A stretch of 59,854 nucleotides of DNA from a virus. Its lineage: Duplodnaviria > Caudoviricetes. The position numbers were made by a program, and so were the translations under genes. Positions 20,893-59,854 of this stretch are shown in pieces. The stretch is taken from IMG/VR virus record IMGVR_UViG_3300020352_000627, positions 1 through 59,854 of that record. One strand, given 5' to 3'. Under the pieces are notes generated by a model. The model did not search any database. It was not told the DNA's origin and saw only the letters and a list, made by a program, of their open reading frames with translations. Position 1 is the stretch's first letter. Every line of letters begins with the position of its first letter.

Positions 20893-21143
20893 GTGATTTT
20901 ACTGTAGAAGTTGTTGACACCAATAACCTTTTAGAAATAGAAACAAGTACAGCTGTAACTCACGGAGATGGAATTAGTATAGTTGAGCTTGAAACAACTA
21001 CGGCAGATGTTATAGAGATAACTACAGGAGTTTTTAGTTCTAGTGGTTCTGGTGGTTCTTCTAATGCTTCAGAAATTGTTGGATTAACCTCTTTTATTAA
21101 TAATGTAATAGATAATGCAACTATTGATTGTGGAACACCTTAG
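20889..21143 (+). CDS. Small virion-associated hypothetical protein
   Basis: ATGA overlap; C-terminal IDCGTP. Confidence 0.6.
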   Translation: MSDFTVEVVDTNNLLEIETSTAVTHGDGISIVELETTTADVIEITTGVFSSSGSGGSSNASEIVGLTSFINNVIDNATIDCGTP

Positions 21144-21174
21144 CACTAAACGGAAATAAAAACGGAGAAACATA

Positions 21175-29651: not shown

Positions 29652-30746
29652 ATGTCATCTATATCAGATTTAAGTTTATCAAATGTCACAAAAGTTTCAG
29701 CTGGCTACGGACATGCTGTGGCAATTTCTGATGGTAAACTGTATACGTGGGGCCTTAATGACGAATATCAGCTTGGAAATGGAAACACCGTAAATGTTAC
29801 TAGTCCAGCACAAATTGGCACTGACACAGATTGGGAAGATGTTGCTTGTGGAACCAAACACACTATTTGCAAAAAAACAGACGGGACAATATACGCATTT
29901 GGAAGAAATATGGAAAGTCAATGCGGAGTTACGGGTTCTAGTTTTGTTACTACTCCTACTGCATGTAGCGGGGTAACTGGAACCGTTCATAAAATTGCAG
30001 CTTCTACACACTATAGTATGTACCTAAATACTGACAGCGATGTATATGGAGTTGGAGATAATGTAAAAAGAACAATAAAATCAAGTACTGATACTGTTAC
30101 CACATGGACATCAATTTCTGATTATACTGGTGCAGATATAATAGCTGCTGGCCCTCAACTCTCGGCTTGTTACCAACAGGGGGTTGGCGTAAAAATTAGG
30201 GGCTATTACAGTGATAGCTTTCAATATTTTAATGAAACTGTCCAAAACGATCGTTATTCTCTAGCTATACATACTGCCGCGGAAGAAGTTCCTGAAACAA
30301 GCTCTCTCAATCTGGTTAATCTTACTATAGGTAATGATTTTATTCTAGGGGTTGAACAGGCTGGAGATTTATATGGGTTTACATTTGCTGTTGATATCCC
30401 ATCTATTACCTCTAGTGCCTTTAATTCATCAAATTATGCTTCTTCTATAGGTTTTTATGGAGTAAAATTTTATATAAGCGCCTCAGCACATTACCCCAAG
30501 TGTAATTATTTTGAGCTAATAGATGATTCTAAGAACTGGCTTAAACTTGATGCTGGTTTTGATCACGCTGCCATAGTTACGCAAGATGGAGAGATTTATT
30601 CTTTTGGAAATAATGATTACTACCAATTAGGTAGAACCTATTCTGGGGATGATTCTAATTTGGTTGAAATGTCTGGGGTAGCAAGTAACGGGAATTGGAC
30701 TGTTGTTGGCTGTGGTCACTATCAAACTTTATTGTGTAAGGAGTAG
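29652..30746 (+). CDS. RCC1-repeat beta-propeller protein
   Basis: VSAGxxH...DGKLYTWGxN.xYQLG repeats. Confidence 0.9.
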   Translation: MSSISDLSLSNVTKVSAGYGHAVAISDGKLYTWGLNDEYQLGNGNTVNVTSPAQIGTDTDWEDVACGTKHTICKKTDGTIYAFGRNMESQCGVTGSSFVTTPTACSGVTGTVHKIAASTHYSMYLNTDSDVYGVGDNVKRTIKSSTDTVTTWTSISDYTGADIIAAGPQLSACYQQGVGVKIRGYYSDSFQYFNETVQNDRYSLAIHTAAEEVPETSSLNLVNLTIGNDFILGVEQAGDLYGFTFAVDIPSITSSAFNSSNYASSIGFYGVKFYISASAHYPKCNYFELIDDSKNWLKLDAGFDHAAIVTQDGEIYSFGNNDYYQLGRTYSGDDSNLVEMSGVASNGNWTVVGCGHYQTLLCKE

Positions 30747-39405: not shown

Positions 39406-40347
39406 ATGCCAGCAGCCAGCTTTAGCTTTCAATTAGAACAAGGGTCTGATTTTCAAATAGTGTTTCGCTATTTAGACTCTAGCTCTAATCCAGTTAATCT
39501 CACCAATATGCATGTCTTGTTTAGATTTCAAGATAACGATGGAGTAGATTATAGTTTTGACAATATAACAGAAACTACAGATTACTCACTAACTACAACA
39601 TCTAATGGTGTTATTACCTTGCTTATACCAGCTAAAATAACAGACAATTACACCTTTTCATCTGCCCAATATGAGCTTGATATACAAGAGCCTAATGAGG
39701 TTTTTGCTGGAGCTGGAACAAAAAGTAATAGAATTTTATTTGGTAGTATTAATGTAATTGCTAGAACATTAACTCCTCCTACAAGATCAGATTTAACTAT
39801 TTTTCCAGCACAAAATAAATTGTGTCCTCCTGTTATGCTGTCAGATGCTACAATATATGAAGGCGGAGCTATTACAATTGCAGATAATGCTGTAGCTAAT
39901 AGTTCTATTACTGTTGCAGATACTAGGAATGTACAACAAATAGAAGTAGGTATTGAAGGATTAAACCATACAAATATTCAAGATTTAAATATATTTCTTA
40001 CATGCCCAGCTCTTGCTGCTAATAATGCTATATTGTTGGTTGGTAGTGAAAAATTCAACCAATATACACCTGGCTTTAGTTTTATAATATCAGATAGAGC
40101 AGAATCTACAACTTCAGCATATTCTGTTTCAGATGGCGGTATGTTTAAACCTACTGATAAAACTGATTATATTAGATTTAAAATAGGTGCCACTGAACAA
40201 ACCTTGCAACATTCATTTAGTTCTCAAATTGGTGATCAAGCTAATGGAGATTGGACTTTGCATATATGTGATCATGATAAAAATGCTATAGGCTTTATCT
40301 CAGGCTGGAAATTATACATAACTTTTGATGAAATATGGGGATCATAA
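39406..40347 (+). CDS. BppU-like domain fused to proprotein-convertase P-domain
   Basis: HT...DL.I.L..P and G..ANG.W.L.I.D.....G.I..W.L motifs. Confidence 0.75.
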   Translation: MPAASFSFQLEQGSDFQIVFRYLDSSSNPVNLTNMHVLFRFQDNDGVDYSFDNITETTDYSLTTTSNGVITLLIPAKITDNYTFSSAQYELDIQEPNEVFAGAGTKSNRILFGSINVIARTLTPPTRSDLTIFPAQNKLCPPVMLSDATIYEGGAITIADNAVANSSITVADTRNVQQIEVGIEGLNHTNIQDLNIFLTCPALAANNAILLVGSEKFNQYTPGFSFIISDRAESTTSAYSVSDGGMFKPTDKTDYIRFKIGATEQTLQHSFSSQIGDQANGDWTLHICDHDKNAIGFISGWKLYITFDEIWGS

Positions 40348-43969: not shown

Positions 43970-44131
43970 ATGAATTATAATACGGACGATATACTATTGT
44001 CTTTGGGTAGGTTGCATTTCGATATGTCTCAGGCCCAAAGATATATAGGTTTACTACAAGAGGAAATCAAAGAAAAAGACCAGACAATAAAACAATTGCA
44101 ATCTAGTAATAATCAGGATAAGGATGAATAA
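43970..44131 (+). CDS. Small coiled-coil protein
   Basis: ATG at 43970; overlaps the next start. Confidence 0.55.
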   Translation: MNYNTDDILLSLGRLHFDMSQAQRYIGLLQEEIKEKDQTIKQLQSSNNQDKDE

Positions 44132-45182
44132 TGCGGAAATACAGTTTCTTTTGCATAGAATTTTTGAAAAAAGACTACAATTTTACTTTCAAGACACTGT
44201 TTATGAACTAAGATATGCAAACAATAAACTCAACTATAATGCTGACCTTATATACTACAATACAATCAACGAAGAAAAATACGGGAATTGGATTCGTGAA
44301 GAACATATGATCAAGCTTATGGTTGAGTTAGAATTATGGAATGACAATGTGGAAAAGCAAATGAAAGTTTTTGATAAAACTATAGAAGATAAAAAACTAG
44401 CATTATTTGAAACCTACTTGGTAGACAAGAAGAGCAAAAGAATAAATCAAGATAGAAAATATATTCGAAATTTAGAAAATCAAATCAGCTCCTTACATGC
44501 CAAAAGACAAGACTTTAAAACACATACACTTGAGGGTTATGCAGAAGGAATCAAACAAGAATATATAATTGTTCACTCATTATACTGCAATAATAAGAAA
44601 GTATTTAACAATCAAACTCATAAATCGCCCCAATCTTATAATAAATTTAATCAACTAGTTAGTGAAATCAATAAATACCATATTAACAATAATCAATATA
44701 GAGATATAGCTAAAAGCGACATTTGGAGATCTTACTGGAATGCAGATAAACAAAATGTATTTCCTGGTTCAGTATGTGATTGGTCAGAAGAGCAAAGAAA
44801 TCTAGTTAATACCAGCAAAATGTATGATAGTGTTTATGATCACCCAGAGTCTCCCAGTGAAGAAATTATTGATGACCATGATTTGTTGGATGGTTGGATG
44901 ATAAAACAGAAAAGAGATAATGCTAGAAAGAAGAAGCAGGGTGATTTAGATAAGCAAAACCAGAGGCTTGCAGGAGCAGGAGAAGTATTTATGATGGCTA
45001 AAGACAAACAAGAGTTATCCGATATTCACGACATGAATAACCCTTTGGCAAAACAGATGCATCGTACAAATGTAAAACAAATGGAAGAAGAAGGTTCTGT
45101 AGCTGTTGAAAATTTGCATACAACTAAAACAGTCGTAATTCCAGAACAAAAACAGGGCTTAAATGTAAGAAAGAATTTCTAA
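44124..45182 (+). CDS. Hypothetical protein, possible tail assembly chaperone
   Basis: 352 aa between tail tube and tape-measure genes. Confidence 0.55.
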   Translation: MNNAEIQFLLHRIFEKRLQFYFQDTVYELRYANNKLNYNADLIYYNTINEEKYGNWIREEHMIKLMVELELWNDNVEKQMKVFDKTIEDKKLALFETYLVDKKSKRINQDRKYIRNLENQISSLHAKRQDFKTHTLEGYAEGIKQEYIIVHSLYCNNKKVFNNQTHKSPQSYNKFNQLVSEINKYHINNNQYRDIAKSDIWRSYWNADKQNVFPGSVCDWSEEQRNLVNTSKMYDSVYDHPESPSEEIIDDHDLLDGWMIKQKRDNARKKKQGDLDKQNQRLAGAGEVFMMAKDKQELSDIHDMNNPLAKQMHRTNVKQMEEEGSVAVENLHTTKTVVIPEQKQGLNVRKNF

Positions 45183-45183: not shown

Positions 45184-45489
45184 ATGAGACATAAAAAAAA
45201 TAAACACAACATAGTAAAGCAAATGGAAACTAGAATTAAAACTGCTATGATTGGTTCTTTAGCTAGATTTGAAGAAGCTTTCGGAGAAGTGCTAGACAGT
45301 AGCGACCATTATGCAGAACTGTGGGATGATGTAAGAACTAAAATTTTGAATAACGGAAATCATCAAATTAGATTGGCAACAGAGGAACTAGAGACTTTTA
45401 TTTACGACAATAATTGTAAACCTAGTGTTGAGAAAAAGTATCACTATAAATTTAACATTAATCAGGACAGGAGCGAAGATGAAGACTAA
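45184..45489 (+). CDS. Hypothetical protein
   Basis: 101-aa ORF in the operon. Confidence 0.6.
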   Translation: MRHKKNKHNIVKQMETRIKTAMIGSLARFEEAFGEVLDSSDHYAELWDDVRTKILNNGNHQIRLATEELETFIYDNNCKPSVEKKYHYKFNINQDRSEDED

Positions 45490-46396
45490 AACATTTAAAG
45501 TAGAAGTGGATGGAGCAGAAAAGGAATTCTTAGTTAAGAATCCTTCTTTGCACGATCAAAGAGAGGCTCAAAAGGTTTATAATCAAGCCTTTACTGATGC
45601 CGTAAAATCTAAAAGTGTTGTCAGAGCAAAGCTAGAAGACTTGCTTAAAGATCAAGGGTTATGGGATGACGACAAACAAATAAAATTTGATACTCTTCAA
45701 AGAGAACTTTTGGACGGTGAAAAGAAACTAGCTAAGGGTGGTTTTGGACTTACCCAAGCTAAAGAATTAGCTCTAAGAATGAAAAATGTGCGTGATGAAA
45801 TTAGGGCTTTGGTAAGTGTGCGAACCAGTTTAGATAATCACAGTGCTGAAGGTCAAGCTGATAATGCTAGATTTAATTATTTAGTATCTAGTTGTGTAGT
45901 AGATAATGACACAAAGCAGCCTTGTTTTGCTAGTATGGAAGATTACTTAAATAGATCAGGAGAAGAGGTTGCTATTTTGGGCGCTCAGCATTTGGCCAAT
46001 ATGATTTATGGCTTGGACAATGATTATGAGCATAATCTACCAGAAAATAAATTCCTTAAAAAATACAAGTTTGTAGATGAAGAACTTAGACTTGTTAATA
46101 AAGAAGGGGATTTTGTGGATGCCGAAGGTCGTTTGGTTGATGAAAGTGGTAGATATATCGACAAAGAAGGTAATTTTGTTGATAGATTTGGTAATATTGT
46201 TGATGCTGAAGGCGAATATGTCGTTGACGCAGAACCTTTCTTGGACGATGATGGTAAGCCGATTATTCTAGAGGAAGAAGAGGAAGTTGTTGCTGAAACA
46301 ACCGAAGATTCTACCGAAAAAGAAGCTCCAGTTGCTAAATCTTCTAAATCTAAAAAATCTAAAGAAGATAAAGCAGAAAAGGAAGAATCAGCTTAA
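45479..46396 (+). CDS. Putative tail assembly chaperone with 7-aa (F/L/Y/I)(V/I)DxxGx repeats
   Basis: AGGAG SD before the ATG at 45479; directly upstream of the tape measure. Confidence 0.6.
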   Translation: MKTKTFKVEVDGAEKEFLVKNPSLHDQREAQKVYNQAFTDAVKSKSVVRAKLEDLLKDQGLWDDDKQIKFDTLQRELLDGEKKLAKGGFGLTQAKELALRMKNVRDEIRALVSVRTSLDNHSAEGQADNARFNYLVSSCVVDNDTKQPCFASMEDYLNRSGEEVAILGAQHLANMIYGLDNDYEHNLPENKFLKKYKFVDEELRLVNKEGDFVDAEGRLVDESGRYIDKEGNFVDRFGNIVDAEGEYVVDAEPFLDDDGKPIILEEEEEVVAETTEDSTEKEAPVAKSSKSKKSKEDKAEKEESA

Positions 46397-46483: not shown

Positions 46484-49400
46484 ATGGCCAATGCTTTTAA
46501 CTTGACAGCACAGCTTAATCTTAGAGGTCCCTCTAATCTTAAGCCTGTGATAAAAAACATTAAATCACAATTGGGTAATATTAATGCTAATGTTAATTTA
46601 ACAGTAGCAAAAAATAGTAGTGCTAATATAGCAAAATTAAATGCTGGACTAAAAGCCCTTAATAAAACATTAAATACTACAACTGTTACTAGTAGAAATG
46701 CAGCGAATGCTATTAGCAGTTTAGGCACGGCAATTAAAGGGATTAATGCTAGCCAGGTTAGTGCTTCTATTAATAAAGCTACCCAAGCCTCAAAGCAATT
46801 AGCTGCTCAACAGCAAACTGTAAGCAAATCCCTAGCCTCTTCTAGAACAGAAATGGAAGAGTTTGGTAAACAGTCAGGTTTGGCTATTAGAAGATTTGCT
46901 GCGTTTAGTGCCGTAACTGCTGTTGTTTTTAAATTAAATAATGCTATTAATACTGGCGTTAGCTCTTTTATAGAATTTGAACAACAATTCATTAGATTGC
47001 AACAGGTTACAGGAGATAGTGCTCAGTCTTTAAGTAGACTACAAACCTCTATTACTAAACTTAGTACTGGCTTAGGTGTTACTTCTCAAGAATTAAGCCA
47101 AGTTTCTGTTACGTTAGCTCAGGCTGGTTTAAATGCGAGAGAAACAGAAAAAGCATTAGAGGCATTAGCTCTTAGTGCTTTGGCTCCTTCTTTTGATAAT
47201 CTTAACAATACTGTCGAAGGTAGTATTGCATTGATGCGTCAGTTTGGTATTAGTTCCAATGAGTTAGGAAGCGCTTTAGGTAGTATTAATGCTGTTGCGG
47301 CTAGTTTTGCTGTTGAAGCAGGAGACATTATCAAAGCTATTAGTAGAACTGGTGGTGTGTTTGCTAATGCCAGTAAAGGAGTAAGTGAAGGTACAGACGC
47401 TCTTAACGAATTCATTGCAGTATTTACTAGTGTTAGAGCTACTACTCGTGAAAGTGCAGAAACTATTGCGACAGGTTTAAGAACTATTTTTACAAGAATA
47501 CAAAGAGGCTCTACGATAGAAGCTCTTAAAGAGTTTGGAGTTACTCTTACAGACTTAGAAGGTAAATTTGTTGGACCATTTAAAGCTATTCAATTATTAA
47601 GTGAAGGTCTTGGAAGATTAGATCCTAGAGATATTTCATTCTCAAATATTGTAGAAGAGCTTGGTGGTTTCCGTCAAATTGGTAAAGTTATTCCTCTTAT
47701 TCAACAATTTGCTACCGCACAAAGAGCTTTAGGAGTAGCTAATGCTGGACAAGGGTCTCTTGCAGAAGATGCGGCAATCGCTCAATTAAGTTTAGCCAAT
47801 CAAATAGCCAAAGTTCGAGAAGAATTTTTAGGACTGTTTAGAGAAATAGGAGGAAGTGATAGTTTTCAAACAATTGCTAAAGGAGCTTTAGGTTTAGCTA
47901 GTGCTTTAATTAAAATTGCAGATAGTGTTAAAGGCGTTCTGCCTGTCTTGGCTATTATGGGAGCTGCTAAGGGTCTTTCTGCTGTTACACAATTTACTGC
48001 TGGATTTGCAGGAGGTATAAAAAGCGGTGGTGGGGCTAGAGGTTTTGGCTCAAGGATGTCTGGAGCTCCTAGTGGTTTTGCTACAGGAGGTTTGGTTCCT
48101 GGCCAGGGTAATAGAGATACTGTACCAGCAATGCTAACGCCGGGTGAGTTTGTAATTAGAAAAAAAGCAGTTGAAACTATTGGTGCTTCAAAATTAGGAA
48201 GCATGAATAAATATGCTGGAGGAGGCAAAGTACAAAAATTTGCTAAGGCAGGGCCTGTTAGATATAAGGCCGATAGAGGCAGTAAAATGCAAGAAGTTGA
48301 AAATTTAGGAGCTAGAGATGGAGATTCTTGGAGAGTTAATTATATTCCTTCTCCAGATAAGGTCGGTCCCGTCACTACTAGAGCCGTAGGGTATGACGCT
48401 TATGAAATAGGAAAAGGAAAAGGAAGAAAATGGGAAAGAGCTTTAGGTCAAATAGCTACTGATGTTGCAGATAGCGAATTTAAAAAGGGAAGCAGCCAAG
48501 CTTTTACAAAAGGATTTAATGCTGTTGGAGATAAAAACAGATCCATCGGTTCTCGTCCACTACATAATGTAGGTGACGTTGCTAGGGAACTAATTTCTCA
48601 AGGATTAGCTGTTCCTGCTGGATCGAAGGCTACAGGAAGTTCACCACAGCCGACAGATCAACAAATAGCCACACTTAAAACTTTTTCTTTTGAATACGAC
48701 AAAAAAACAGGTAAGACTAAAGGAGGACCTTTAAGACCAGGATTTAATTTAGGGGGCTCGGTACAAAGATTTGAAAATGGTGGAGGTATTAAAGTTGCAA
48801 AAACCGGCAAGGTTACTAAAGCAGCTATAGCAGGAGCAACAACATCACAAATACAATCTTTGCTGACTAATCCGAACGTGCGTAAAAATCCAGCATCGAT
48901 GGCATCATTAACTAAGGCTTTGAAAGAAAAACAACTTCAAGAAGCAGTATTGCCTAAGTTTGCTGTAATTGGACTGAGAGGAAGAAACTTTAACGAAAAA
49001 GTAAAAGCTCCTTCAAGTAAAAAAGCAGTAAATATTATGGGCTCTGTTTTACCAAAAGGTATTGCAGATGCTTATGAAGGACAAATGGCGGACGGTTTTA
49101 CTAAGACAGTTAAAGGCATATCTGGTCAAATTGCAGGTAAAGTTGGAGCTAATGTAATATCTGACACAGAACTTAAAGCAATTATAACAGAAACAGGTTT
49201 TTACAATGCTGTTGGTGCTTATCTTGAAAGTGCTGTCGCTGGAGTTGGTGCTCCTTTTCTAAAATCTTCAATTAATGAACCTATTGATTTTCCTGCCGGT
49301 GTTGGTAATGTTGGTAGTATGTTTGGTATTCCTGGAAATATTCCTACAGATACCACTCGAACTGTTGCTGAGAAAGGCAAAAGTCCTCAAGCGTTTCTTG

Positions 49401-52400
49401 GTCAAGTAGATAGATATATAGAAAAATATGGAACTACAGGAGCATTAAAACTTGCTGCTGGAGGAAGTGTAGCAGATACCGTTCCTGCATTGTTAACTCC
49501 CGGCGAATTTGTAATTAACAAAAAAGCAGCAAGAAGCATAGGTTCTGCTCAACTCAATAAGATGAATAAAGCAGACAAACTTCAAGGTTTTAATAAAGGT
49601 GGTCCTGTTGGGTTTGCTGATGGAGGAGGAGTGCCTCTTAGACCAGATGTTATTCAACAATCTACTGTTGCCATACCTGATAGCGCTAGACAAGGACTAG
49701 AAGAAATTATAAATGTATTAGAAGAGTTAGGAGTTCAATCTAAAGCAACTTCTAGCGTGGTTGCTAATCAGGGTAGAGTTAGTTATGAAACTGCAATTGA
49801 TGCTTCTAAAGCAGATTTAGCAAAAGCCAAAGCAGCAGGAGCATCATCTGCTCAGATAGGGGTTTTAACTAAAAATTTAATAAATTTACAAAGTGAAGCG
49901 TCAGCAAGTGTTAAAAAAAGACAAGGACTAGAAAGCGCTTTTGGTGCAGGAGGACGGGATAGCGCAACACAACAAGCAAATATTTTAAGTCAAGCAGAGA
50001 CATTAGCTGAAGGACGTATAGCAAAAGCTTCAGCAACCAAAGGTAAGAATTTAACTGCTGAAGACATAGCTAAAATTAGAGACTCCTCTTTTTCTGACGC
50101 AACCAGATCGGTAACGGGGGTTTCTAACGCTGATCTTAAAGCGTCAGGTATTAAGGGTTCGGATATTCAACAATATATATCTGAGACGGAATTAGATTTA
50201 AAGTCTCAGGATAAATTTTTGGAACAATTCCAAACCAGTAGACAAAAGCAGCTTTTATCCCAAAAAACACAGGCCGGTACCGCAAAATACACAGCAGAAG
50301 AAGCTAAAAAATTAGCAGCTAAAGAAGTCAAAGCACGAAGAGATGTTACCAAACAGATACAAAAATCCAGAGGATTGCCAACTGGTGGAGGTTTTGGCTC
50401 CAGACTTAAAGGTATGGGTGGACCTCAAGCTAGTATTGCTGCTAGTTTAGCTCTTCCTATGATAACAGACTTTTTCGCTGGAGGAGAACCTACTAGTGCT
50501 AGCGGAGCATCTAGTCAGGCATTAGTTCAAGGAGGAGCAGGAGCAATTTCTACAGGACTTGCTGTAGGTAGTATTGCTGGTCCTATTGCAGGGCTTGCTG
50601 CTGGGGCAGTAACTTTGGTTAAGTCGTTTGCAGATGCACAAAACGCTGCTGTGGAGTTTGCAGAAAAACTTAGTAGAAGTAAAATTGAAGAATCAGCCGA
50701 AAAACTTAACAAAGCTTTTGAGATACTAGCAAAGAATGCTGAAGATCAACAAACCATCAATCTTGTAGAAGCAGAACTAAGAAATATAAGTGATGAGACT
50801 AGAAAGTTAGTAGACAGTAATAATAATACCACCCAGGTTGGTTTGCTCAATATGTTCGATGTTTTTTCATCTAGTGAAGCATTTAATCAAAGAGGAGAGG
50901 TTTTAAGTAATCAGGGAATAGGTGCTTATCTACAAACTCTGTTTAACTCTTCTGGGCTAGAAGATGCTTTTGATAAAGAGAGACCTAGAATAGCTAGAGA
51001 AAATGCTAAGTTATTTGCAGAAACTACTCAAGCCACTAGAGAATTCATACATTCATTAGTTAATTCAGGAAAAACCTATGAAGAATTAATAAATGATCCT
51101 AATCTTCTTAAATTTTCTGAAAATTTAGTGTTAGCAGACGTTGCTGTACAAAGAGCTATACAAAATATCCAAAAAGCAGGCGGAAGTTCTGCAGACGTAG
51201 CTGACTTTGTGGCACGAGCTGCTGCTGAAAAAGCTAGAGAACAAATTAATATTAGCATTAATACTAAAGCTTTAGACGATCTTAATAAATCAGCTAAAGA
51301 ACTTTCTATAAGTTTTAAAAGACTATTTTCTAGTATGGACCAACAAGTTGCTAGAGCTACTTTTAGTTTAGCTAGATTTGATGAAGGTTTAGAACAAAGC
51401 ATAAATGCTCTTAGTGGTTCAGCAAGAATAGGAGAATCTTCTTCGCGTGATGCAAATATTTTAGAAAACCCTTTGGCGTTTAGTAGTGCGGATTTTAATT
51501 CAGCTACCGCTAGAAGTGCTGGTAGATTTGGTGAAGATTCCACACTTGTTAGAGGTATATTACAACTTGGACCAAGTTTAGAAGACAGCATACTTAAAAC
51601 TATTAATACAGTTCTGGCTAATGACGGGGATAATCCTGAGATAGCAAAAGGAAGAATTAATAGAGCCGTTCAAGAAGAATTAAAGAATCTAGGTCTGCCC
51701 GCTTCCCTAGCAGCTAAATTATCCAGAGAAATTGCAAAAGCTGTAGGAGACATTACCAATGAGACAGACAAAGGATCTGTTTCACTACAAGAACTAACAG
51801 AAAAAATATCAGGTTTAAATGACTTAATAGGAACATCTGCGCAAGCCAGAAAGACTGCGATCAATGCTTTAAATCAATGGCAGTCTTCACTAAATTCGTA
51901 TGCTAGCGCTATCAATAAAATAACAGAGATGCAATTAGAATCTGCAAATCGATTAAGAAGAGCAAGTAGCATATTATTCGATGCTCAGGTTAGTCTAGCC
52001 GGTGCTCTTGGTAAGGATATTAGTTTAGATACTTTAGAAAGAGAAAGAGATAGAGATATTAGATCTCGAACAGGAGGACTTAACGATCCTGTAGATATTG
52101 CGAATTCATTAAGCTCTTTGTTAGACAGAAGGCAGGCTCAAGCGGCTAATAGACAGGCTGCTGGTGCTGATATCAATGCTCCAGATGCTTCTGCTGCTGT
52201 TGTTAAAACCACTCAAGAATTAGCTAAAACAAATTTTCAAATCAATGAAACTAGAGCAGCGCTTGAAAGTTTAGCCAACGACTCGAATCTGGCTTCTGCT
52301 GCACTCAACAAAATACAAAAAGCTCAACAAGATCAAGCTGGTAAAGTTACTTTTATTGAAAAATTAGTAACTAGTACGCCAGCAGAATTAAAAAACTTAA

Positions 52401-55400
52401 ACAATTCTTTTGCTGATTTACAAAGATACATAAGTGGTCAGGCTATCTCTATTCAAGAAAGCACAGCAGCTCAAAAGGCTTATAGAAAAGCTTTACGAAG
52501 CGGAGCTAGTAGACAAGATGCTCAAAAAGAAGCACAAAAAGCATTCGCAGATCAAAGAGGCAATGCTTTATCTTTATTAAAAGAAATCAGTCCTTTTCTA
52601 GGAGATAATCAACAGTCAAATGATCTTAGAGCTAGTGCTCTTGAAACTATGCTGAGAGAGAGTGGTGTAGGTTTAAATCCTATGCTAACTAATGTTCTAG
52701 ATGCTTTAAGAAATCCACAACTTGATCCCGCTACAGCTAAAGCTATTAGCACATATGAAAAAGCTATAAATATTCAATCTCAAGCAAATGTACAACTTGC
52801 TAGGCTTAATGACGAACTGGCATCCAAAATAGCTAAAAGTAGCGCTGAAGCAATAAGAGATGCTTTAGAAGGTGTTACTGTAAAATTTGATCAACAACAA
52901 CTTGACGATCTTGTAAATGGAATCAGAACTGCAGTACCAGGAGGAAAGCCCGATGGTAAAGCTGCTGGTGGTATTATTTATGCTAGCCAAGGCACTGCTG
53001 TTGATTTTGCTCCTCAAGGGACAGATACAGTTCCTGCTATGCTTACTCCAGGAGAATTTGTAGTTAATCGATCAGCTACACAGAAAAATAGACCAATACT
53101 GGAAGCAATAAATAATGGATACTCTAAAGGAGGATCAGTCTCCTATTATGCTGGTGGAGGTTTTGTCGCGGGTAGTGCTGCCGCTGCTGATGATATATGG
53201 AAATATGACGCCAGTAAAAAACCTATTACTGTTGACAGTTTTCGGGAAGCGCCGACTTTGGATCCGTATGACGCATATACAGGATTAACAATAGGTAGAG
53301 AAATTGCCCCCAGTAAAGTTGTTTTTGAAAATGATCAAGCAAGAGTATCTGTTCCTCCTCTTATGGGTGAAGGTTTGACAGACGATGCTAACACAGTTTT
53401 GGATAAAAAAATACTTAGAACAAATAAATTATTAAGTATATCTCAAACAAGCAAACCATTGGCTGAGGCTACTCTAGCGTTTACTAAAGATGCGTTTGGT
53501 ATTAAAACTAAAGTGTCAAAAAACTCTCTAGCTTTGGGTTCTGGCAAAAGAACATTTCAAATGCCAGTTTTTAGAGATACTGCAAAGCAATATGAAGAAG
53601 CAGATTTTTTAAAGTTAGTTCAAGATTATGGTAATGTAAATCTAGGAAGGCAAACACCAGGACAAAAAGTAGGTGCATTTGAAGAATTTATAGATGCTAG
53701 TGGTGGCAAGCTAAAAATACCTCTAGATATCGACGCTATTACTACGGCAGATCCTACAATCGGTATGACGTTTGAATCTAGCTTGTTTAACGATACTGTT
53801 ATACTAAAATTAAAAAAATTAGCAGCCAGAATAAGTGATCCTGATGCTGGTCTTGGTTTCTTTTATGGTCAAAACCCAGCTGCATATGGTAAAGCTCTTA
53901 TGGGATATGATGTTCCAAATAAAACCCAAGCTGATTTTGGTGCTGGTCAAAAAAATATAGTAGGAGATTCTATTTTTGAGTCTGCAGAGGGTGACAATAT
54001 TGTTGGACAAATACCTACAAATTCATATTCAGCAGCAATGACAAAGTTTTCTGAAACAAAAGATAGACTAAATGAGCTTAAGGGTCTTTATGATAGAGGA
54101 GGAAGAGAAAGAGAATCTATTTTTCAAGATACTGATGCGGGACAGAAAAAAATTACAGACAAATTAAAAAAGATTTATACTTCCAATTCTCCTTTTATGG
54201 CCTATGGTTTTCCATCTACAGATCTTACAAACTTAGATAAAATAGGAGCTTTAAAAGAAGCAATAACTATTTATGGTGGTGGTCAATTAGAATTTGAAAA
54301 TAAGTTTAGACAGACAATACAAAATCTTGTTGGCACCACCCAAATACAAGCTAATCAAACCTCTTTAGGCACAGGCAAACCTATTTACATTTCTGCTACT
54401 GGAGGACCAGGAAAAGCTTTTGGTTGGACACAAGGTGTAGATTTAGAAGATCTGGATGTAGACTTTGCCAAAAGAAAACAAGAGGCAGAGGATGAAATGT
54501 CAAGGATTACAGGAACTAACGAATCTAAGTTAAAAGGTTTCTTTAATTTAGATGTTCCAGTTAATGGAAATCAGCAAAGTATTAAAATTCCTTATCATTT
54601 AAATTATACAAAATTTGACGGGAAATTGTGGGATTCTAATAATTTGACTGCTTCTCCTAGAGAAATGTCAGATTTATTAGGAGGACCAGGATATATATTA
54701 AACGCAGTAGCTGCAGACGCTCTCAATCCTTATGCTAAATTTAATGCTGGTAATGATATAGCTTTGGCAGCTAATCAAGCAGCTTTTGACAGTGATCTTG
54801 TTGTAAGTCCAGATTTTATTGAATCTAAATTTCAAAATGCTACTGTTAAAAACTATTTAGGAGAGGTTATAGAGCAGAGCAAGACAAACTTGGGTAGTAA
54901 AACAGCTGCTCTTGGTCCAATGAGTACTACCCTTGCTGCTGGAAACGGACTATCTTTCTTTAAAAAATCCAACAATACTTTTATTGATCCTAATATATCT
55001 AGAGTAGGCCTACCAACAAATGCTAGAACCACATCCCTAGAAAACTACTTAACAGCAGTTGCGGATCAAGTTCTTAAAGCAGGAAAAGATGCTCAAGAAA
55101 AGGCAGGCTCTCAAGTTGCTAATCCTGAGGAGTTTAAATCTACTCTTTCTCACATGAAATATCTTAAACCAGCTTTTGAAACTATTGCTAATACAGCATT
55201 TAGCTTGTTTGGAGCTGGCGGACCTTACAGCCTACCTGGTTCTCAGTTCGGAGTACCTGTACAAAATTTAGTAAACAGACAACAGATCAGAGATCTTAGT
55301 GGTATCTTGGGCGGTCAGTTGAATTCTTATACTACTGGTGTTGCAGGTAGTGTGGTCGGTGGTAATTTCCCTAATTTAGCTAGTTATGATTTGTATAATA

Positions 55401-58400
55401 ATGCTGAAGTTTTATCTCATGGCGCAATGGCTGCTTTTAATAGTATAGCAGGTAGCAATACTAACCTACTTAGTAGATACCTAAACCCAGAAGATCTTAT
55501 TAAAGATAATTTCAATTGGCAAACTCTTAAAGATAAAACCTTAACTATGTTTAGAGCTCTAGGAGCAGGCCAAAAATCTAATGCATTCTTAGATGGAGCA
55601 CAAGGCAAACTGACTGTTGATGATAAACTAGATCTTAGCAGTATTTTAGGAGAGGGAGACAGTATTATTAGTAGTGGTCCTGATAAGGATGGTAAATTTA
55701 CCAGAGGTAAAAATGGGCAGATTGGTGATATAGATACTCTTAGAAACGTATTAGATATTGCTTTTAATCCTTACAATAGATTTGACGAAATTACAGATAG
55801 AAAAATTTTAATTAATGCTATTAAAGCAAGATTTATGGGCGCTACCGGATCTACTGGCAGACCTTTGTTTAGTCAGCAAATGACGCAAAATGTTATGGAC
55901 AGTATGGATGCTGTTAAACTTTGGTTTGGTGGAGAACCTGGCGCAAATGCAGATATTGCTCAACCTCCTGAAGATTTTAATGCTGAAGGATTATCTAAAG
56001 AAGTTAAACAAAACCAACAACAACAAAGTTCACAAACTGGATCTAGCGTAGCTGGTAATGTGGCTAGAGGAATTACTGCTGCTGGTTCTTTCCTTCCTGG
56101 TTTAGCTGGGGCTGGTGGTGCGGATTCAATTAGTGGTGCCGCTGCTTCTATTAGAACATCTGCTTGGAAAGGTGTTGATTATCTGTACGATAGAGATCCT
56201 GCTACTCCAGATTATGCTACTAGACTAACAGAACTACAAAATGGTTTTGATCAAAAAATATATGATGAAGCTCAAAAAGGATTTGCAGAGTTAGGAGCTT
56301 TAGGTAATTTTGGTTCCTTACCTCCTCTTGATTATTATAAGTCTCTTGGTGATCCTGGCTATTACAAAACAGGAGGAATGATTTATGCTAGTCAGGGTCA
56401 ATTAGTTGATTTTGAACCTAAAGGAACAGACACTGTACCTGCTATGCTGACTCCTGGTGAGTTTGTTATCAACAAGCAAGCTACACAAAAAAATCTTCCA
56501 TTACTTAAAGCTATTAATAATGGAGGAGCTGAGTCTTATGGTGCGAATGGAGTTATGTATGCTGCTGATGGAACTGAGGGTCCCGTCAGGTCACCTGCTC
56601 AAACAAGAGCGCAGAAAGTGCAAAGATTTATAGCGTTGGATAAAAATAAGAATGGAGTACTGGAAGGAGATGAATTCCCTATAAGTAAATTCAGACAAGA
56701 CACTAATCTAGATGGATTATTAACTCTAGATGAGTTTATCGGTATTATGGATAATGTAAATGCTGACGACATTAAGACCTACAGAAATACTCAACGTAGA
56801 AAACAGAAGTTTGAGAATAACGAGGAGCGTCTAAATGCATCTGCTCTTAGAACTAAAGATTTAAAAGAACAAAAAAAAGCCAGAAGTGCATATCTTAGAA
56901 CAAGACAAGAAGCTTTAGACATTGGAGCAAGTATAGGAGAGGCTAATGCTGCTGGTCAAGAAGCTTACAGAAATAGTATTAATACTTATCAATCATTTGA
57001 TAGAGACACTTATGACAGAATTGATGACCTACCTCTTGAAAGACAAGAAATAGCACGAAAAGCTCGTGAAAGAGAAAGATTGCGAACGGAAGAGCCAATT
57101 AGATTTCAAAAAGAAAGAAGAGCAACATTAGCTGCCGATAAAAAAGCAGAGGAGGATAGAATAAAGGCAGAAAGAGCGGCAAAGAAAGCTGAACGGCTTG
57201 AAAGGATTCGTGAAACTGAGAGAATTAGAAGAGAGGCTGAGGCCAAACAAGCTGAAGCTGATGAAAAATTAAAGACAAAATTATTGGGTGGTAGAGCAGA
57301 CTATAGAGGTAGAGATAAGCAAAGATTAGATTTTGATGACGACTATGACAGAGGAGTTATGAGAAAGAAAGTTATAGCTGATAACTATACTTTCAAAGAT
57401 AAGACAGGCGGATTTAGTACAACTGGAACTATTGAAGGTGTCGATTATGATGCTAAGATGATTACAATAGGCAAGATCGATCCTAAAACCGGACAACCTC
57501 TTTTAGATGATGATGGCAATCAAAGAACTACTACAGTACCTTTAGATAAACTTGGAGACAAGACCTTAGAAAGAGTAACTTCATCAGATCAATGGAATAC
57601 AGGCAAACTAAAAGCAGAAAAACGTAGAGCTGATAAAATATTAAAAGATAAACAGTTAGCAGATGCTATACAGTCTGGTAATGAAGGGGCTATATATCCA
57701 ATAGATTCTGCTGGAAGGCCAACAACAGATGGGCCACTAACTCCTGAAGAGCTTAGACAACAAAACGACATAGCACTAGCGAAACAGACAGACCAGGTTA
57801 CGATGAGTACATTCAGGAATTTGAATGCAATAGAAGCAAAAGCAATAGAAAAGAGACAGAAGAAAGCTGCTAGAAGAGCAAAGACGTTAGAAAATAAAGA
57901 GAGATCGGACAAACTATTAGCTCCTGTAAGAGCGAAAAAAGCTCTTATTGAAGATATAAATAATCAGCTTGGACCAGAAGAAGCGTTGTTAGGAAGAATG
58001 TTTGACCAAGGTAAAGCTAGTAGTTTCGCTTATAAAGATAGTGCATTCAAATCAAAACAACCTAGAGGTAGAGAAGAAGCAGCTTACAGAATACAACGAG
58101 AAAAAGTCGAAGAACTTAAAGAAAGACGTAGAAAAGTTAAAAATGATGAAAAAGTTACTGTACCAAATCAGCCAATCAAACCAAGATTTGGAGGCAAAGG
58201 AGGCATCAAGGCTACAGAAGAAGAGAAGCAGGCTATTAATGCTAAATACGAAGCAGATCTTGCAGCATGGCAAGCTGAACAAAACAAGTACGATGCTCTT
58301 AGAACACAAGACAGTACCTTTGCTGCTGGAGTCGACGCTTTTACAAAAGCTCCTGTTGTTGCTCAGGGAATAGGTGCTGTACAAGGCGTTGCACAAACAG

Positions 58401-59854
58401 CTCAAGGAATGGCACAAACAGCTGGCGGCGCTCTTGGAATGATTGGATCAGTACCGTTGGCAATGGTATCAGACATTGTAAACAAGGCTCCTTTCATAAA
58501 AGATTTAACGCCAGATGAAGTCAAAGCGTTTACAAAAGAGCTTACTAGCGCATTTGCCAGTGGTTCACTAAATATGACGGGAGAAGGTCTTTCTAATTTT
58601 GTAGGTGGCGGAATTACTTTTGGACAATCCCTTGGTTTGAATCAAGATGAGCTATCTAAAACAGTTCAACAAGTAGGAGCTGCGCTACAGGAAGAACGAC
58701 TAGCTAGGGCCGATGAACTTGGAGTTGGAGGTGCAGTTAGGGCTCTTGATACTATTTCAGCAATTGCTGCTGATTTCGCTGTTGGCGAGGGGTTGTTCTC
58801 TGTGGGAGGTAAACTTCTTAAGGCCGCTGCAACAACTAGGGCTGGTGGAAAACTTGCAGTCGCAAACAAATATAGTATGAATGTAGGAGAAGAGTTGTCT
58901 AAAGGATTAGGCAAATTAAACGAGATAGGACAAATGCCTGTTGGCGAAGCGATAGGAACAGCACGGAAAAAAGTAGGAGATTTTGCATCAAATGCTGCTG
59001 AACGAATTAAGAAATTTAATGAAACTATGTCTAGCACCCCAAGAGGTAAAGCTCAAGCTGCAAAAATACAAGCTTTAAGAGAAAATGCTATTAAAGCAGG
59101 AATACCTGAAAATCAAGCTAATCAATTTATATCAGATGCTATTGAGACACAAAAAGATTTGAGCTATAGAATACAACAGAATGAAGGACTATTACCAGAT
59201 AGAGATCTTCTTGACTTAGCTCTAAATCGAAGAGATAGATTAAAGGAGATGGGCTATGATCCCGAACTTGCTGCTAAGCTTACTGGATTAGACTTTTTCC
59301 CTGAAAATCAACTAAATAATATTGTCAAAAACGAAGGATCACAGGCCGCTGAACGACAACTATATCAATATTTAGAGAGTGCAAGCCCAGAAGAGTTAGC
59401 TGCATTCAGGAAAAGCACACTTCAAGGACAACAACCCTTTAGAGCAATGCAGCGAGAAGCAAACGTAAAAACAACAATTGATGCGCAAAGAGCTGCTGCA
59501 GCTAGACAGCCATTTGGCAATACGTATACTCCAGGAGGACAGGGTCTGACTACCCAAGCAGCACCTCTTGCTCCATCAACCATTGCTCCACCAACCAGAG
59601 ATCCTAACATACTTCAACCTATGTTTGATCCTGGAACTGGAGGTACACTAAATCCAACAAGAGGAGGATATCCACTTAGTAATACTCCTCAAGGGCTGTT
59701 TACATCTCCAAGTTCAGCAGCTGTTTCTCCGACAACAGCACCGGCAAAAACGACAGCAGCAACTACAGCAACTACAAAACCGACAGCAGCAACTACAGCA
59801 ACTACAAAACCGACAACAGCAACTACAGCAACTACAAAACCGACAACAGCAACT
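46484..59854 (+). CDS. Giant tape measure protein, 3'-truncated (>4457 aa), multi-domain
   Basis: ATG at 46484 (MANAFNLTAQLNL); TP901-type TMP core; same frame at every segment translated, including the last codon; no closed + ORF is reported here in the track, implying no in-frame stop. Confidence 0.9.
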   Translation, partial: MANAFNLTAQLNLRGPSNLKPVIKNIKSQLGNINANVNLTVAKNSSANIAKLNAGLKALNKTLNTTTVTSRNAANAISSLGTAIKGINASQVSASINKATQASKQLAAQQQTVSKSLASSRTEMEEFGKQSGLAIRRFAAFSAVTAVVFKLNNAINTGVSSFIEFEQQFIRLQQVTGDSAQSLSRLQTSITKLSTGLGVTSQELSQVSVTLAQAGLNARETEKALEALALSALAPSFDNLNNTVEGSIALMRQFGISSNELGSALGSINAVAASFAVEAGDIIKAISRTGGVFANASKGVSEGTDALNEFIAVFTSVRATTRESAETIATGLRTIFTRIQRGSTIEALKEFGVTLTDLEGKFVGPFKAIQLLSEGLGRLDPRDISFSNIVEELGGFRQIGKVIPLIQQFATAQRALGVANAGQGSLAEDAAIAQLSLANQIAKVREEFLGLFREIGGSDSFQTIAKGALGLASALIKIADSVKGVLPVLAIMGAAKGLSAVTQFTAGFAGGIKSGGGARGFGSRMSGAPSGFATGGLVPGQGNRDTVPAMLTPGEFVIRKKAVETIGASKLGSMNKYAGGGKVQKFAKAGPVRYKADRGSKMQEVENLGARDGDSWRVNYIPSPDKVGPVTTRAVGYDAYEIGKGKGRKWERALGQIATDVADSEFKKGSSQAFTKGFNAVGDKNRSIGSRPLHNVGDVARELISQGLAVPAGSKATGSSPQPTDQQIATLKTFSFEYDKKTGKTKGGPLRPGFNLGGSVQRFENGGGIKVAKTGKVTKAAIAGATTSQIQSLLTNPNVRKNPASMASLTKALKEKQLQEAVLPKFAVIGLRGRNFNEKVKAPSSKKAVNIMGSVLPKGIADAYEGQMADGFTKTVKGISGQIAGKVGANVISDTELKAIITETGFYNAVGAYLESAVAGVGAPFLKSSINEPIDFPAGVGNVGSMFGIPGNIPTDTTRTVAEKGKSPQAFLGQVDRYIEKYGTTGALKLAAGGSVADTVPALLTPGEFVINKKAARSIGSAQLNKMNKADKLQGFNKGGPVGFADGGGVPLRPDVIQQSTVAIPDSARQGLEEIINVLEELGVQSKATSSVVANQGRVSYETAIDASKADLAKAKAAGASSAQIGVLTKNLINLQSEASASVKKRQGLESAFGAGGRDSATQQANILSQAETLAEGRIAKASATKGKNLTAEDIAKIRDSSFSDATRSVTGVSNADLKASGIKGSDIQQYISETELDLKSQDKFLEQFQTSRQKQLLSQKTQAGTAKYTAEEAKKLAAKEVKARRDVTKQIQKSRGLPTGGGFGSRLKGMGGPQASIAASLALPMITDFFAGGEPTSASGASSQALVQGGAGAISTGLAVGSIAGPIAGLAAGAVTLVKSFADAQNAAVEFAEKLSRSKIEESAEKLNKAFEILAKNAEDQQTINLVEAELRNISDETRKLVDSNNNTTQVGLLNMFDVFSSSEAFNQRGEVLSNQGIGAYLQTLFNSSGLEDAFDKERPRIARENAKLFAETTQATREFIHSLVNSGKTYEELINDPNLLKFSENLVLADVAVQRAIQNIQKAGGSSADVADFVARAAAEKAREQINISINTKALDDLNKSAKELSISFKRLFSSMDQQVARATFSLARFDEGLEQSINALSGSARIGESSSRDANILENPLAFSSADFNSATARSAGRFGEDSTLVRGILQLGPSLEDSILKTINTVLANDGDNPEIAKGRINRAVQEELKNLGLPASLAAKLSREIAKAVGDITNETDKGSVSLQELTEKISGLNDLIGTSAQARKTAINALNQWQSSLNSYASAINKITEMQLESANRLRRASSILFDAQVSLAGALGKDISLDTLERERDRDIRSRTGGLNDPVDIANSLSSLLDRRQAQAANRQAAGADINAPDASAAVVKTTQELAKTNFQINETRAALESLANDSNLASAALNKIQKAQQDQAGKVTFIEKLVTSTPAELKNLNNSFADLQRYISGQAISIQESTAAQKAYRKALRSGASRQDAQKEAQKAFADQRGNALSLLKEISPFLGDNQQSNDLRASALETMLRESGVGLNPMLTNVLDALRNPQLDPATAKAISTYEKAINIQSQANVQLARLNDELASKIAKSSAEAIRDALEGVTVKFDQQQLDDLVNGIRTAVPGGKPDGKAAGGIIYASQGTAVDFAPQGTDTVPAMLTPGEFVVNRSATQKNRPILEAINNGYSKGGSVSYYAGGGFVAGSAAAADDIWKYDASKKPITVDSFREAPTLDPYDAYTGLTIGREIAPSKVVFENDQARVSVPPLMGEGLTDDANTVLDKKILRTNKLLSISQTSKPLAEATLAFTKDAFGIKTKVSKNSLALGSGKRTFQMPVFRDTAKQYEEADFLKLVQDYGNVNLGRQTPGQKVGAFEEFIDASGGKLKIPLDIDAITTADPTIGMTFESSLFNDTVILKLKKLAARISDPDAGLGFFYGQNPAAYGKALMGYDVPNKTQADFGAGQKNIVGDSIFESAEGDNIVGQIPTNSYSAAMTKFSETKDRLNELKGLYDRGGRERESIFQDTDAGQKKITDKLKKIYTSNSPFMAYGFPSTDLTNLDKIGALKEAITIYGGGQLEFENKFRQTIQNLVGTTQIQANQTSLGTGKPIYISATGGPGKAFGWTQGVDLEDLDVDFAKRKQEAEDEMSRITGTNESKLKGFFNLDVPVNGNQQSIKIPYHLNYTKFDGKLWDSNNLTASPREMSDLLGGPGYILNAVAADALNPYAKFNAGNDIALAANQAAFDSDLVVSPDFIESKFQNATVKNYLGEVIEQSKTNLGSKTAALGPMSTTLAAGNGLSFFKKSNNTFIDPNISRVGLPTNARTTSLENYLTAVADQVLKAGKDAQEKAGSQVANPEEFKSTLSHMKYLKPAFETIANTAFSLFGAGGPYSLPGSQFGVPVQNLVNRQQIRDLSGILGGQLNSYTTGVAGSVVGGNFPNLASYDLYNNAEVLSHGAMAAFNSIAGSNTNLLSRYLNPEDLIKDNFNWQTLKDKTLTMFRALGAGQKSNAFLDGAQGKLTVDDKLDLSSILGEGDSIISSGPDKDGKFTRGKNGQIGDIDTLRNVLDIAFNPYNRFDEITDRKILINAIKARFMGATGSTGRPLFSQQMTQNVMDSMDAVKLWFGGEPGANADIAQPPEDFNAEGLSKEVKQNQQQQSSQTGSSVAGNVARGITAAGSFLPGLAGAGGADSISGAAASIRTSAWKGVDYLYDRDPATPDYATRLTELQNGFDQKIYDEAQKGFAELGALGNFGSLPPLDYYKSLGDPGYYKTGGMIYASQGQLVDFEPKGTDTVPAMLTPGEFVINKQATQKNLPLLKAINNGGAESYGANGVMYAADGTEGPVRSPAQTRAQKVQRFIALDKNKNGVLEGDEFPISKFRQDTNLDGLLTLDEFIGIMDNVNADDIKTYRNTQRRKQKFENNEERLNASALRTKDLKEQKKARSAYLRTRQEALDIGASIGEANAAGQEAYRNSINTYQSFDRDTYDRIDDLPLERQEIARKARERERLRTEEPIRFQKERRATLAADKKAEEDRIKAERAAKKAERLERIRETERIRREAEAKQAEADEKLKTKLLGGRADYRGRDKQRLDFDDDYDRGVMRKKVIADNYTFKDKTGGFSTTGTIEGVDYDAKMITIGKIDPKTGQPLLDDDGNQRTTTVPLDKLGDKTLERVTSSDQWNTGKLKAEKRRADKILKDKQLADAIQSGNEGAIYPIDSAGRPTTDGPLTPEELRQQNDIALAKQTDQVTMSTFRNLNAIEAKAIEKRQKKAARRAKTLENKERSDKLLAPVRAKKALIEDINNQLGPEEALLGRMFDQGKASSFAYKDSAFKSKQPRGREEAAYRIQREKVEELKERRRKVKNDEKVTVPNQPIKPRFGGKGGIKATEEEKQAINAKYEADLAAWQAEQNKYDALRTQDSTFAAGVDAFTKAPVVAQGIGAVQGVAQTAQGMAQTAGGALGMIGSVPLAMVSDIVNKAPFIKDLTPDEVKAFTKELTSAFASGSLNMTGEGLSNFVGGGITFGQSLGLNQDELSKTVQQVGAALQEERLARADELGVGGAVRALDTISAIAADFAVGEGLFSVGGKLLKAAATTRAGGKLAVANKYSMNVGEELSKGLGKLNEIGQMPVGEAIGTARKKVGDFASNAAERIKKFNETMSSTPRGKAQAAKIQALRENAIKAGIPENQANQFISDAIETQKDLSYRIQQNEGLLPDRDLLDLALNRRDRLKEMGYDPELAAKLTGLDFFPENQLNNIVKNEGSQAAERQLYQYLESASPEELAAFRKSTLQGQQPFRAMQREANVKTTIDAQRAAAARQPFGNTYTPGGQGLTTQAAPLAPSTIAPPTRDPNILQPMFDPGTGGTLNPTRGGYPLSNTPQGLFTSPSSAAVSPTTAPAKTTAATTATTKPTAATTATTKPTTATTATTKPTTAT
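59751..59854 (+). repeat. 30-bp tandem repeat encoding TTATTKPT(A/T)A
   Basis: AACTACAGCAACTACAAAACCGACA(G/A)CAGC, 3+ copies running off the window. Confidence 0.95.

Follow-up and report, generated by a model that had tools for sequence, protein, structure and literature searches.

A giant phage tape measure protein with a repeated C-proximal module and exchangeable cassettes: a candidate polyvalent tape measure

The IMG/VR virus record IMGVR_UViG_3300020352_000627 (Duplodnaviria; Caudoviricetes) ends within a giant open reading frame (ORF), which we analyzed as the gene of a phage tail tape measure protein (TMP). The window, meaning the whole stretch of DNA that was analyzed, is this entire linear record of 59854 bases, which is estimated to be ~40% complete. 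On the + strand, the frame that starts with the ATG at position 46484 is free of stop codons up to the final base of the window and amounts to 4457 codons that are open at the 3′ end. A stored protein encoded on a 101-kb contig (P0009; 4802 amino acids [aa]) displayed zero mismatches over the 4457 residues of the window protein. Beyond residue 4457, P0009 contains further Thr/Pro repeats, a fifth copy of a repeated module (~4607 to 4673), and a C-terminal tail of 129 aa. The features on which the following analysis rests were located as follows (HMM, hidden Markov model).

46484 to 59854, + strand: tape measure gene, codons 1 to 4457 of 4802; the contig stops before the 3′ end of the gene (open frame; identity to P0009; TMP PHROGs).
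47048 to 47626, + strand: PhageMin_Tail domain (aa 189 to 381), which lies within S1, the conserved N-terminal unit (aa 1 to 528) (Pfam PF10145, 75.2 bits versus a cutoff of 33.2).
48068 to 48277, + strand: module M1 (aa 529 to 598), FATGG...DTVPAMLTPGEFV...YAGGGKVQKFAKAG (module HMM, i-E value 1.9e-31; C-proximal match in many TMP PHROGs).
48296 to 48646, + strand: staphylococcal-nuclease-like cassette (aa 605 to 721) (A5 profile versus thermonuclease; conserved catalytic positions).
48743 to 48784, + strand: stand-alone double-glycine linker FNLGGSVQRFENGG (aa 754 to 767), which closes the nuclease cassette (motif scan; linker family).
48923 to 49420, + strand: conserved pre-M2 domain "X" (aa 814 to 979), no fold assigned (in-family HMM, E values of 1e-33 to 1e-70).
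49421 to 49633, + strand: module M2 (aa 980 to 1050) (module HMM, i-E value 2.7e-38).
52946 to 53164, + strand: module M3 (aa 2155 to 2227) (module HMM, i-E value 9.5e-33; tblastn hits).
56351 to 56572, + strand: module M4 (aa 3290 to 3363) (module HMM, i-E value 4.6e-27).
59745 to 59854, + strand: 30-nucleotide tandem repeat encoding TTATTKP repeats at the contig end (TRF: period 30, 3.7 copies, 97% matches).

The first-pass annotation had read the gene as a giant tape measure. This reading was borne out by the PhageMin_Tail score above the cutoff and by matches of the window protein to four tape measure PHROGs. When the whole proteins of relatives were scanned with Pfam, PhageMin_Tail scored above the gathering threshold in 10 of 10, and relatives carry the source name "TP901 family phage tail tape measure protein." Unit S1 was 49 to 96% identical across all 16 related loci; the parts conserved family-wide were these N-terminal 528 aa and the last ~100 to 130 aa. 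The full-length P0009 shows the pattern of TMPs, with a C-proximal module that is followed by the 129-aa tail. The gene sits in a structural block, downstream of a terminase, a portal, and a long fiber cluster, but the ORFs that flank it match no named family. Judged by its sequence, the protein is a true phage TMP.

Since the contig stops inside the 30-nucleotide repeat, this repeat is probably the reason why the assembly broke within the gene. The same ending, together with the incompleteness of the record, could be taken to mean that the frame is an artifact, either chimeric or misassembled or made up of several genes that are read through. We consider this scarcely credible: the same 4457 aa were found again within P0009 on a separate 101-kb contig, the architecture is common to 16 loci and more than 1400 proteins, and the frame extends over 13.4 kb without a stop codon.

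Exact cores of the pattern DTVPA(M/L)LTPGEFV were found at aa 545 to 557, 998 to 1010, 2181 to 2193, and 3316 to 3328 (nucleotides 48116 to 48154, 49475 to 49513, 53024 to 53062, and 56429 to 56467). All four lie inside the ranges given earlier for an open frame of more than 4457 aa with four modules. The module copies share 61 to 76% identity as DNA, which indicates old copies that were each kept at the protein level and not an assembly artifact. When the modules were scanned alone, they fell in the C-proximal 5 to 15% of numerous TMP PHROG profiles (e.g., positions 1883 to 1948 of 2006, 782 to 835 of 903, and 676 to 742 of 810). A profile built from 28 module copies (A1) matched lambda gpH at residues 733 to 785 (E value of 8.8e-4). 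This stretch reads FATGG...GIVHRGEFVF...GYATGG and lies in gpHC, just downstream of the Gly-rich cut region, in agreement with the initial remark that gpH carries such a module near its cleavage region. The A1 profile also matched mycobacteriophage Douge gp16 twice (964 to 1030 and 1411 to 1471 of 1699 aa) and, weakly, JBD30 gp46 (E value of 0.67). A tblastn search with M3 identified 281 places in 200 phage records; nearly all of the listed places coincided with annotated TMPs, and two places were frequent in Gordonia phages. A single-sequence search of PDB sequences with M3 yielded nothing meaningful. In solved tails, the ordered part of the TMP comprises the last 25 to 42 residues only, and the module itself is never seen. 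We regard the module as a canonical and ordinary C-proximal TMP element, of which the fivefold occurrence is the unusual part. A cultured cyanophage, Nodularia phage vB_NspS-kac65v161, encodes a 3310-aa TMP (gp180; L019) with adjacent internal modules at 888 to 961 and 977 to 1030 and no module near the C terminus, and it would constitute a usable laboratory model for the role of internal modules.

Homologous ORFs of 3072 to 6561 aa were present at the 16 IMG/VR loci. With aa 1 to 600 as the query and the search limited to proteins of 2451 to 7800 aa, at least 1404 metagenomic relatives were found at E values of ≤1e-10 among 1753 scored candidates. We examined 122 stored relatives, consisting of the 120 best of those listed together with P0003 and P0008; fragments are among them. 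Three modules were counted in 3 of these proteins, four in 39, five in 41, six in 10, seven in 16, eight in 12, and ten in 1. A terminal module, located no more than 260 aa from the C terminus, was present in 114 of the 122, and the spacing between modules peaked at 1000 to 1400 aa (235 of 526 spacings). The distant loci L005, L006, L008, L011, and L014 to L016 have two modules, none of them terminal, and still share the last ~100 aa.

All six of the (F/Y)xxGG satellites named by the first-pass annotation are present, namely, YAGGG (aa 577), FNLGG (754), FENGG (763), FNKGG (1036), FADGG (1044), and YSKGG (2213). The wider pattern (F/Y/W)xxGG occurred 17 times in the window protein compared to 2.2 ± 1.5 times in 500 shuffles. 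An 11-residue linker, GG-x-(V/I)-Q-K-F-x-x-GG, was found 500 times in 120 of the 122 relatives, versus 32.8 occurrences by shuffling. It forms the C-terminal edge of modules and also occurs as a stand-alone joint.

The segment directly behind M1 was found to resemble an enzyme. The cassette at aa 605 to 721 has counterparts in 36 of the 122 relatives, always immediately after M1 (in-family HMM), and a linker follows 7 to 112 aa downstream in 35 of these 36. An alignment of nine cassettes, the window's copy included (A5), contains the invariant columns D14, G15, D16, R35, G38, D40, E43, and R93. The A5 profile retrieved staphylococcal nuclease (SNase) structures over the whole domain (E value of 1.8e-8), with DGDT, RLxxDTPE, YGR, and GLA aligned. 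The calcium-binding and catalytic residues of SNase are D21, R35, D40, E43, and R87. All 36 cassettes retain the DGD, R, D, and E residues without exception; at the position equivalent to R87, 21 of the 36, the window's copy among them, have an arginine, and 10 have a gap. Pfam SNase (PF00565) matched three of the nine aligned cassettes (best E value of 3.4e-9), the window's copy not being among them. Thus, aa 605 to 721 are predicted to form an SNase-like domain with an intact active-site signature, which may possess nuclease activity.

In loci L004 and L012, the same slot is occupied by an ADP-ribosyltransferase (ART) domain. It was assigned to PF03496 (ADPrib_exo_Tox) at 26.5 bits versus a cutoff of 23.4 in L004, and an alignment to ExoT (E value of 0.0055) includes its STS and ExE motifs. 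An ART-like region was detected in 21 of the 122 relatives (in-family HMM). The exoenzyme-type ART domain of L004 (12623 to 13030; aa 878 to 1013 of a 6561-aa TMP) was seen upon scanning the slot alone. It had been missed by the whole-protein Pfam scan, which means that precomputed domain lists for giant proteins may underreport embedded domains. Domain X lies just upstream of M2 in every relative examined. A single-sequence search of the PDB with unit S2 gave nothing meaningful, an Atlas search gave no usable match, and no S2 homologues sized 217 to 692 aa were found. We rejected two assignments to PD-(D/E)xK restriction nucleases that had been made by eye. These concerned the first cassette of other relatives (A3) and the pre-M2 domain. 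The A3 profile matched no PDB chain at an E value of ≤10, the Pfam windows were empty, and an AlphaFold2 model of the pre-M2 domain plus M2 reached a predicted local distance difference test (pLDDT) value of 36.6. The first-pass annotation had expected several effector domains between the motifs; an SNase-like cassette here and ART in relatives support this in part, but ~4000 other residues contain no recognized enzyme.

Comparison of relatives revealed where segments are replaced. As far as aa 593, the window protein shares 95% identity with that of L002; the M1-M2 segment is then replaced, and similarity returns at M2 (aa 990). The pairs window/P0004, L002/P0004, L005/L006, and L006/L011 likewise diverged where M1 ends, and L011/L014 and L008/L015 did not. 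The cassettes differ between proteins that are otherwise 82 to 95% identical. Among the 122 proteins, 201 of 420 unique block ends (identity of ≥75%) were no more than 10 aa away from a module or linker, although these ends do not count as independent events and BLAST tends to end its blocks at conserved motifs. For random positions, the share this close to a motif was 9.6% ± 1.5% and never exceeded 15.2% in 200 trials, so that block ends fall at motifs ~5 times as often as random positions do. The alignments indicate that relatives exchange segments preferentially at the motifs. Swapping between the motifs, which the first-pass annotation had suggested as a check, was seen at close to half of the ends; some breaks occur elsewhere. 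The M1-M2 slot is hypervariable. The closest complete relative, L002, also carries a gene for a 772-aa subtilase (Peptidase_S8) at 19034 to 21352, four genes downstream of the TMP; this protease is a candidate for a role in processing or at the host surface, and the matching region falls past the end of the window.

The remainder of the window protein consists of three large units, the last of which contains a small putative calcium-binding motif.

49634 to 52945, + strand: unit S3 (aa 1051 to 2154), helix-type composition (composition).
53165 to 56350, + strand: unit S4 (aa 2228 to 3289), lineage specific, with a first half predicted to be beta-rich at low confidence (homologue search; AlphaFold2).
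56573 to 59854, + strand: unit S5 (aa 3364 to 4457 here, to ~4606 in the full protein), charged helices and Thr/Pro repeats (composition).
56639 to 56734, + strand: pair of canonical EF-hand calcium loops (aa 3386 to 3397 and 3406 to 3417), right after M4 (loop pattern).

Unit S3, for which no Pfam or PHROG family was found, holds an uncharged Gly/Ala stretch (aa 1336 to 1379) and is 72 to 76% identical in L002 and P0003 and 23 to 32% identical in most relatives. For S4, six homologues were identified among 1.84 billion representatives, all of them giant TMPs or fragments thereof. Its AlphaFold2 model had a mean pLDDT of 50.5, with strands in model residues 37 to 217 and 340 to 507. A fold search with this model gave no Foldseek match at an E value of ≤0.001 and, with VIA-align, generic helical hairpins (Z scores of ≤8.4). 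Of the two segments that were modeled, S4 and X plus M2, both had low confidence, and S4 was without a fold match. S5 also contains an uncharged stretch (aa 3956 to 3996); it is 72% identical to the S5 of P0003 and is replaced in L002. The EF-hand loop pattern occurs twice in the window protein versus 0.004 expected per shuffle, and Pfam EF-hand_1 scored 20 bits, below the cutoff of 25.4. EF-hand families were precomputed for 5 of the 120 listed relatives (among them P0016, P0053, P0093, and P0101). The motifs do bracket inserts, as the first-pass annotation had stated, and at least one insert is enzyme-like, namely, the SNase-like domain, but S3, S4, and S5 show no recognizable effector.

We propose, with somewhat better than even confidence, that the gene encodes a polyvalent tape measure of an uncultured long-tailed phage, that is, a ruler threaded in the tail tube whose joints separate exchangeable cassettes that would be delivered to the host. 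The proposal builds on the TMP identity, the architecture of modules and linkers, the nuclease-like cassette, and the segment exchange at the joints; beyond these, it supposes that the cargo would be stored in the tube and reach the host and that the nuclease-like cassette would be active. The protein would constitute a chain of five units (4802 aa), each closed by a ~70-aa module that ordinary TMPs have once near the C terminus, and GG-x-V-Q-K-F-x-x-GG linkers would split the units further. Because both ends are conserved and, in lambda, Douge, and JBD30, it is the C-terminal end that holds the TMP at the tail tip, the whole chain is likely to be threaded through the tube, where it would set a very long tail of several hundred nanometers. 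Tail length corresponds to ~0.15 nm per TMP residue. At this value, 4802 aa would give ~720 nm, and the family would span ~0.37 to 1.17 µm. Between the joints, the tube would hold the SNase-like domain, the EF-hand pair, and beta-rich domains without an assigned fold, and, in relatives, ART and other domains. Upon infection, the TMP would be expelled into the envelope or the cell, and the cassettes would most plausibly act then: TMPs exit the tail before the DNA and enter the envelope, so that cassette domains would reach the host at infection. TMPs are reported to be ejected and to form a trans-envelope channel or carry an enzyme (PMC12617516, PMC10038345). That the cassettes act can be argued from the invariant nuclease signature and from the replacement of one enzyme by another in a single slot. 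TMP cargo that is stored in the tube lumen still requires a long tube, and cargo and a long tail are therefore not alternatives. The first-pass annotation had judged cargo to be more likely than a tail of >650 nm, which was a false choice; a tail of nearly 1 µm is recorded for phage P74-26 (PMC10034513).

Several results weigh against this proposal. The flanking ORFs and the relatives' downstream ORFs match no named family, so that tube, chaperone, and hub could not be named. Break points also occur off the motifs (L011/L014 at 823, L008/L015 at 1149, and L015/L016 at 3578), in addition to the nonindependence of the block ends noted above. Domain searches returned little: 21 Pfam windows of the protein gave subthreshold EF-hand and MCPsignal matches alone; S2, S3, S4, and S5 match no PHROG; the window's own cassette, searched alone, hit 0 Pfam families at an E value of ≤0.1; and Pfam on the whole proteins of 10 relatives detected PhageMin_Tail alone. 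In 39 slot windows from seven relatives, nothing was found at an E value of ≤0.01 except for a subthreshold AvrM_N match, and HAD and P-loop readings of the relatives' cassettes were dropped as visual or subthreshold (AAA_30, E value of 0.002). Both structure predictions were poor (the pLDDT values given above for S4 and for domain X plus M2). Finally, staphylococcal nuclease requires millimolar calcium, which fits the envelope better than the cytoplasm.

The same architecture could also belong to a pure giant ruler, which we consider rather unlikely. The protein would then specify a tail of 0.5 to 1 µm and a DNA channel, the modules would be duplicated structural nodes (serving, e.g., register, oligomerization, or contact with the tube wall), and the inserts would be inactive spacers or relics. 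The long tail that PMC10034513 gives for P74-26 is consistent with such a ruler, as are the duplicated modules of cultured siphophages for which cargo has not been claimed (Douge gp16 and the Nodularia TMP at 888 to 1030), the peak of the module spacing at 1000 to 1400 aa, and the fact that most of the protein is of helix type or without a recognizable fold. However, a nuclease signature that is invariant in all 36 cassettes is not expected of a spacer, and neither the presence of unrelated enzyme families (SNase and ART) in one slot nor the quick turnover of cassettes between proteins that otherwise share 82 to 95% identity suits an inert insert. A different view was taken by the first-pass annotation, according to which the modules and (F/Y)xxGG motifs are protease sites and at least five pieces would be stored in order and injected as separate effectors. 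We find this version doubtful. It gains from lambda gpH, which is cut in a Gly-rich stretch just upstream of the module (PMC12617516); we note that gpH* of ~78 to 79 kDa would end at residue 710 to 730 and that FATGG begins at 733, placing the cut within error at the N-terminal edge of the module. T5 pb2 is cut after R1127 (PMC10038345), and the sequence there (FVPR/AEGG, then ...QMGEHGTEVV) resembles, by eye, a degenerate N-terminal edge and core of the module (aa 1124 to 1160). However, T5 pb2 escapes the module HMM (no match at an E value of ≤100), and the T5 parallel is therefore visual only. Cleavage would likewise fit the highly conserved linkers that bracket the cassettes, and phage polyvalent proteins are thought to be cut into units (PMC5512222).

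Against cleavage, Pfam identified no peptidase family in the whole protein, its 9 segments, or the 21 windows; the nearby subtilase gene is known from one relative only; and for lambda gpH itself, the exact site and the protease are described as unidentified (PMC12617516). The TMPs of Douge and JBD30 are described as continuous trimers, and structure or recombination would explain conserved joints equally well. It is conceivable, at a similarly low probability, that the tube lumen acts as a magazine. In that case, the joints would be cut after assembly, the enzymes (nuclease, ART, and others) would be fired in a fixed order before the DNA, and cassettes would be swapped between phages at the joints as part of an arms race against host defenses. 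If true, this would give phages a third way to inject proteins, alongside internal proteins packaged in the head and polyvalent proteins of the MuF type.

The polyvalent tape measure that we favor shares features with several known systems. Like lambda gpH and TP901-type TMPs, it has a PhageMin_Tail domain, a C-proximal FxxGG...GEFV...YxxGG module, and a short C-terminal tail that would be bound to the tip, and it would be ejected before the DNA. In contrast to gpH, it is ~5.6-fold longer (4802 versus 853 aa), has the module five times, four of them internal, and adds enzyme-like cassettes and stand-alone linkers. The TMPs of P74-26 (~5000 aa) and Nodularia phage vB_NspS-kac65v161 also comprise several thousand residues, and the latter has two internal modules, but their sequence relation to the window protein is limited to the module, and they have not been reported to contain cassettes. 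An enzyme within a TMP that is released at infection is found in T5 pb2 (a metallopeptidase) and SPbeta YomI (an annotated transglycosylase); in pb2, the cut lies between the ruler part and the enzyme (PMC10038345). The cassettes described here differ from these in being nonmuralytic (nuclease-like and an EF-hand pair; ART in relatives) and numerous, and the hypervariable slot lies near the N-terminal fifth and not at the C terminus. The polyvalent proteins described by Iyer et al. (2017, PMC5512222) are likewise giant and codelivered with DNA, contain ART, nuclease, and conflict domains, and exchange cassettes; unlike the protein proposed here, they are packaged in the head or delivered by conjugation and typically have a processing metallopeptidase. 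No such embedded peptidase (MPTase) was found in the scans of the whole protein, segments, and windows. Regarding the several enzymes of polyvalent proteins, the window protein has one supported enzyme-like domain plus the EF-hand pair, and its family has SNase, ART, and weak P-loop hits. The term "tape measure" has 0 occurrences in the main text of PMC5512222, and full-text literature searches, supplementary files excluded, returned no description of such a TMP.

TMPs are usually seen as rulers and channel formers that carry, at most, a cell wall hydrolase. The very large uncultured family described here (at least 1404 proteins with up to 7.8 thousand residues) departs from this picture in its reuse of the canonical C-proximal module as a joint, in the nonmuralytic enzyme-like domains on the ruler, and in the exchange of cassettes at the joints. 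It may provide a handle on the role of the TMP module, on the limits of tail length, and on the injection of effector enzymes by siphophages via the TMP.

No cultured relative was found: a tblastn search with aa 1 to 1050 returned 38 records, all of which matched in the PhageMin_Tail region only and at <30% identity. The window terminase is ~24% identical to terminases of Bacillus siphophages. Four matches among genome contigs belonged to metagenome-assembled genomes of four unrelated labels and were uninformative with regard to the host. The 352-aa ORF upstream of the tape measure gene hit solely unnamed clusters in an Atlas search. A candidate tube protein is encoded at 44124 to 45182. A G/GT frameshift upstream of the gene (ORFs 45184 to 45489 and 45425 to 46396, overlapping at 45425 to 45489) was considered and rejected, since an ATG at 45479 lies behind AGGAG in the +1 frame, which makes a separate start likelier.

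The fiber cluster showed features of its own. A 2312-aa ORF (21175 to 28113) with an N-terminal Mtd_N (major tropism determinant) domain and a stretch matching a PHROG "peptidase" heads a cluster of at least six fiber-like genes. These genes precede the tube region, an arrangement that is unusual among siphophages. Within this cluster, an RCC1-repeat (beta-propeller) protein is encoded at 29652 to 30746, for which three RCC1 families scored above their cutoffs. A 313-aa ORF at 39406 to 40347 carries a proprotein-convertase P-domain at its C terminus (PF01483 at 31.2 bits) and shares an N-terminal PHROG (1084) with the ORF at 20485 to 20892.

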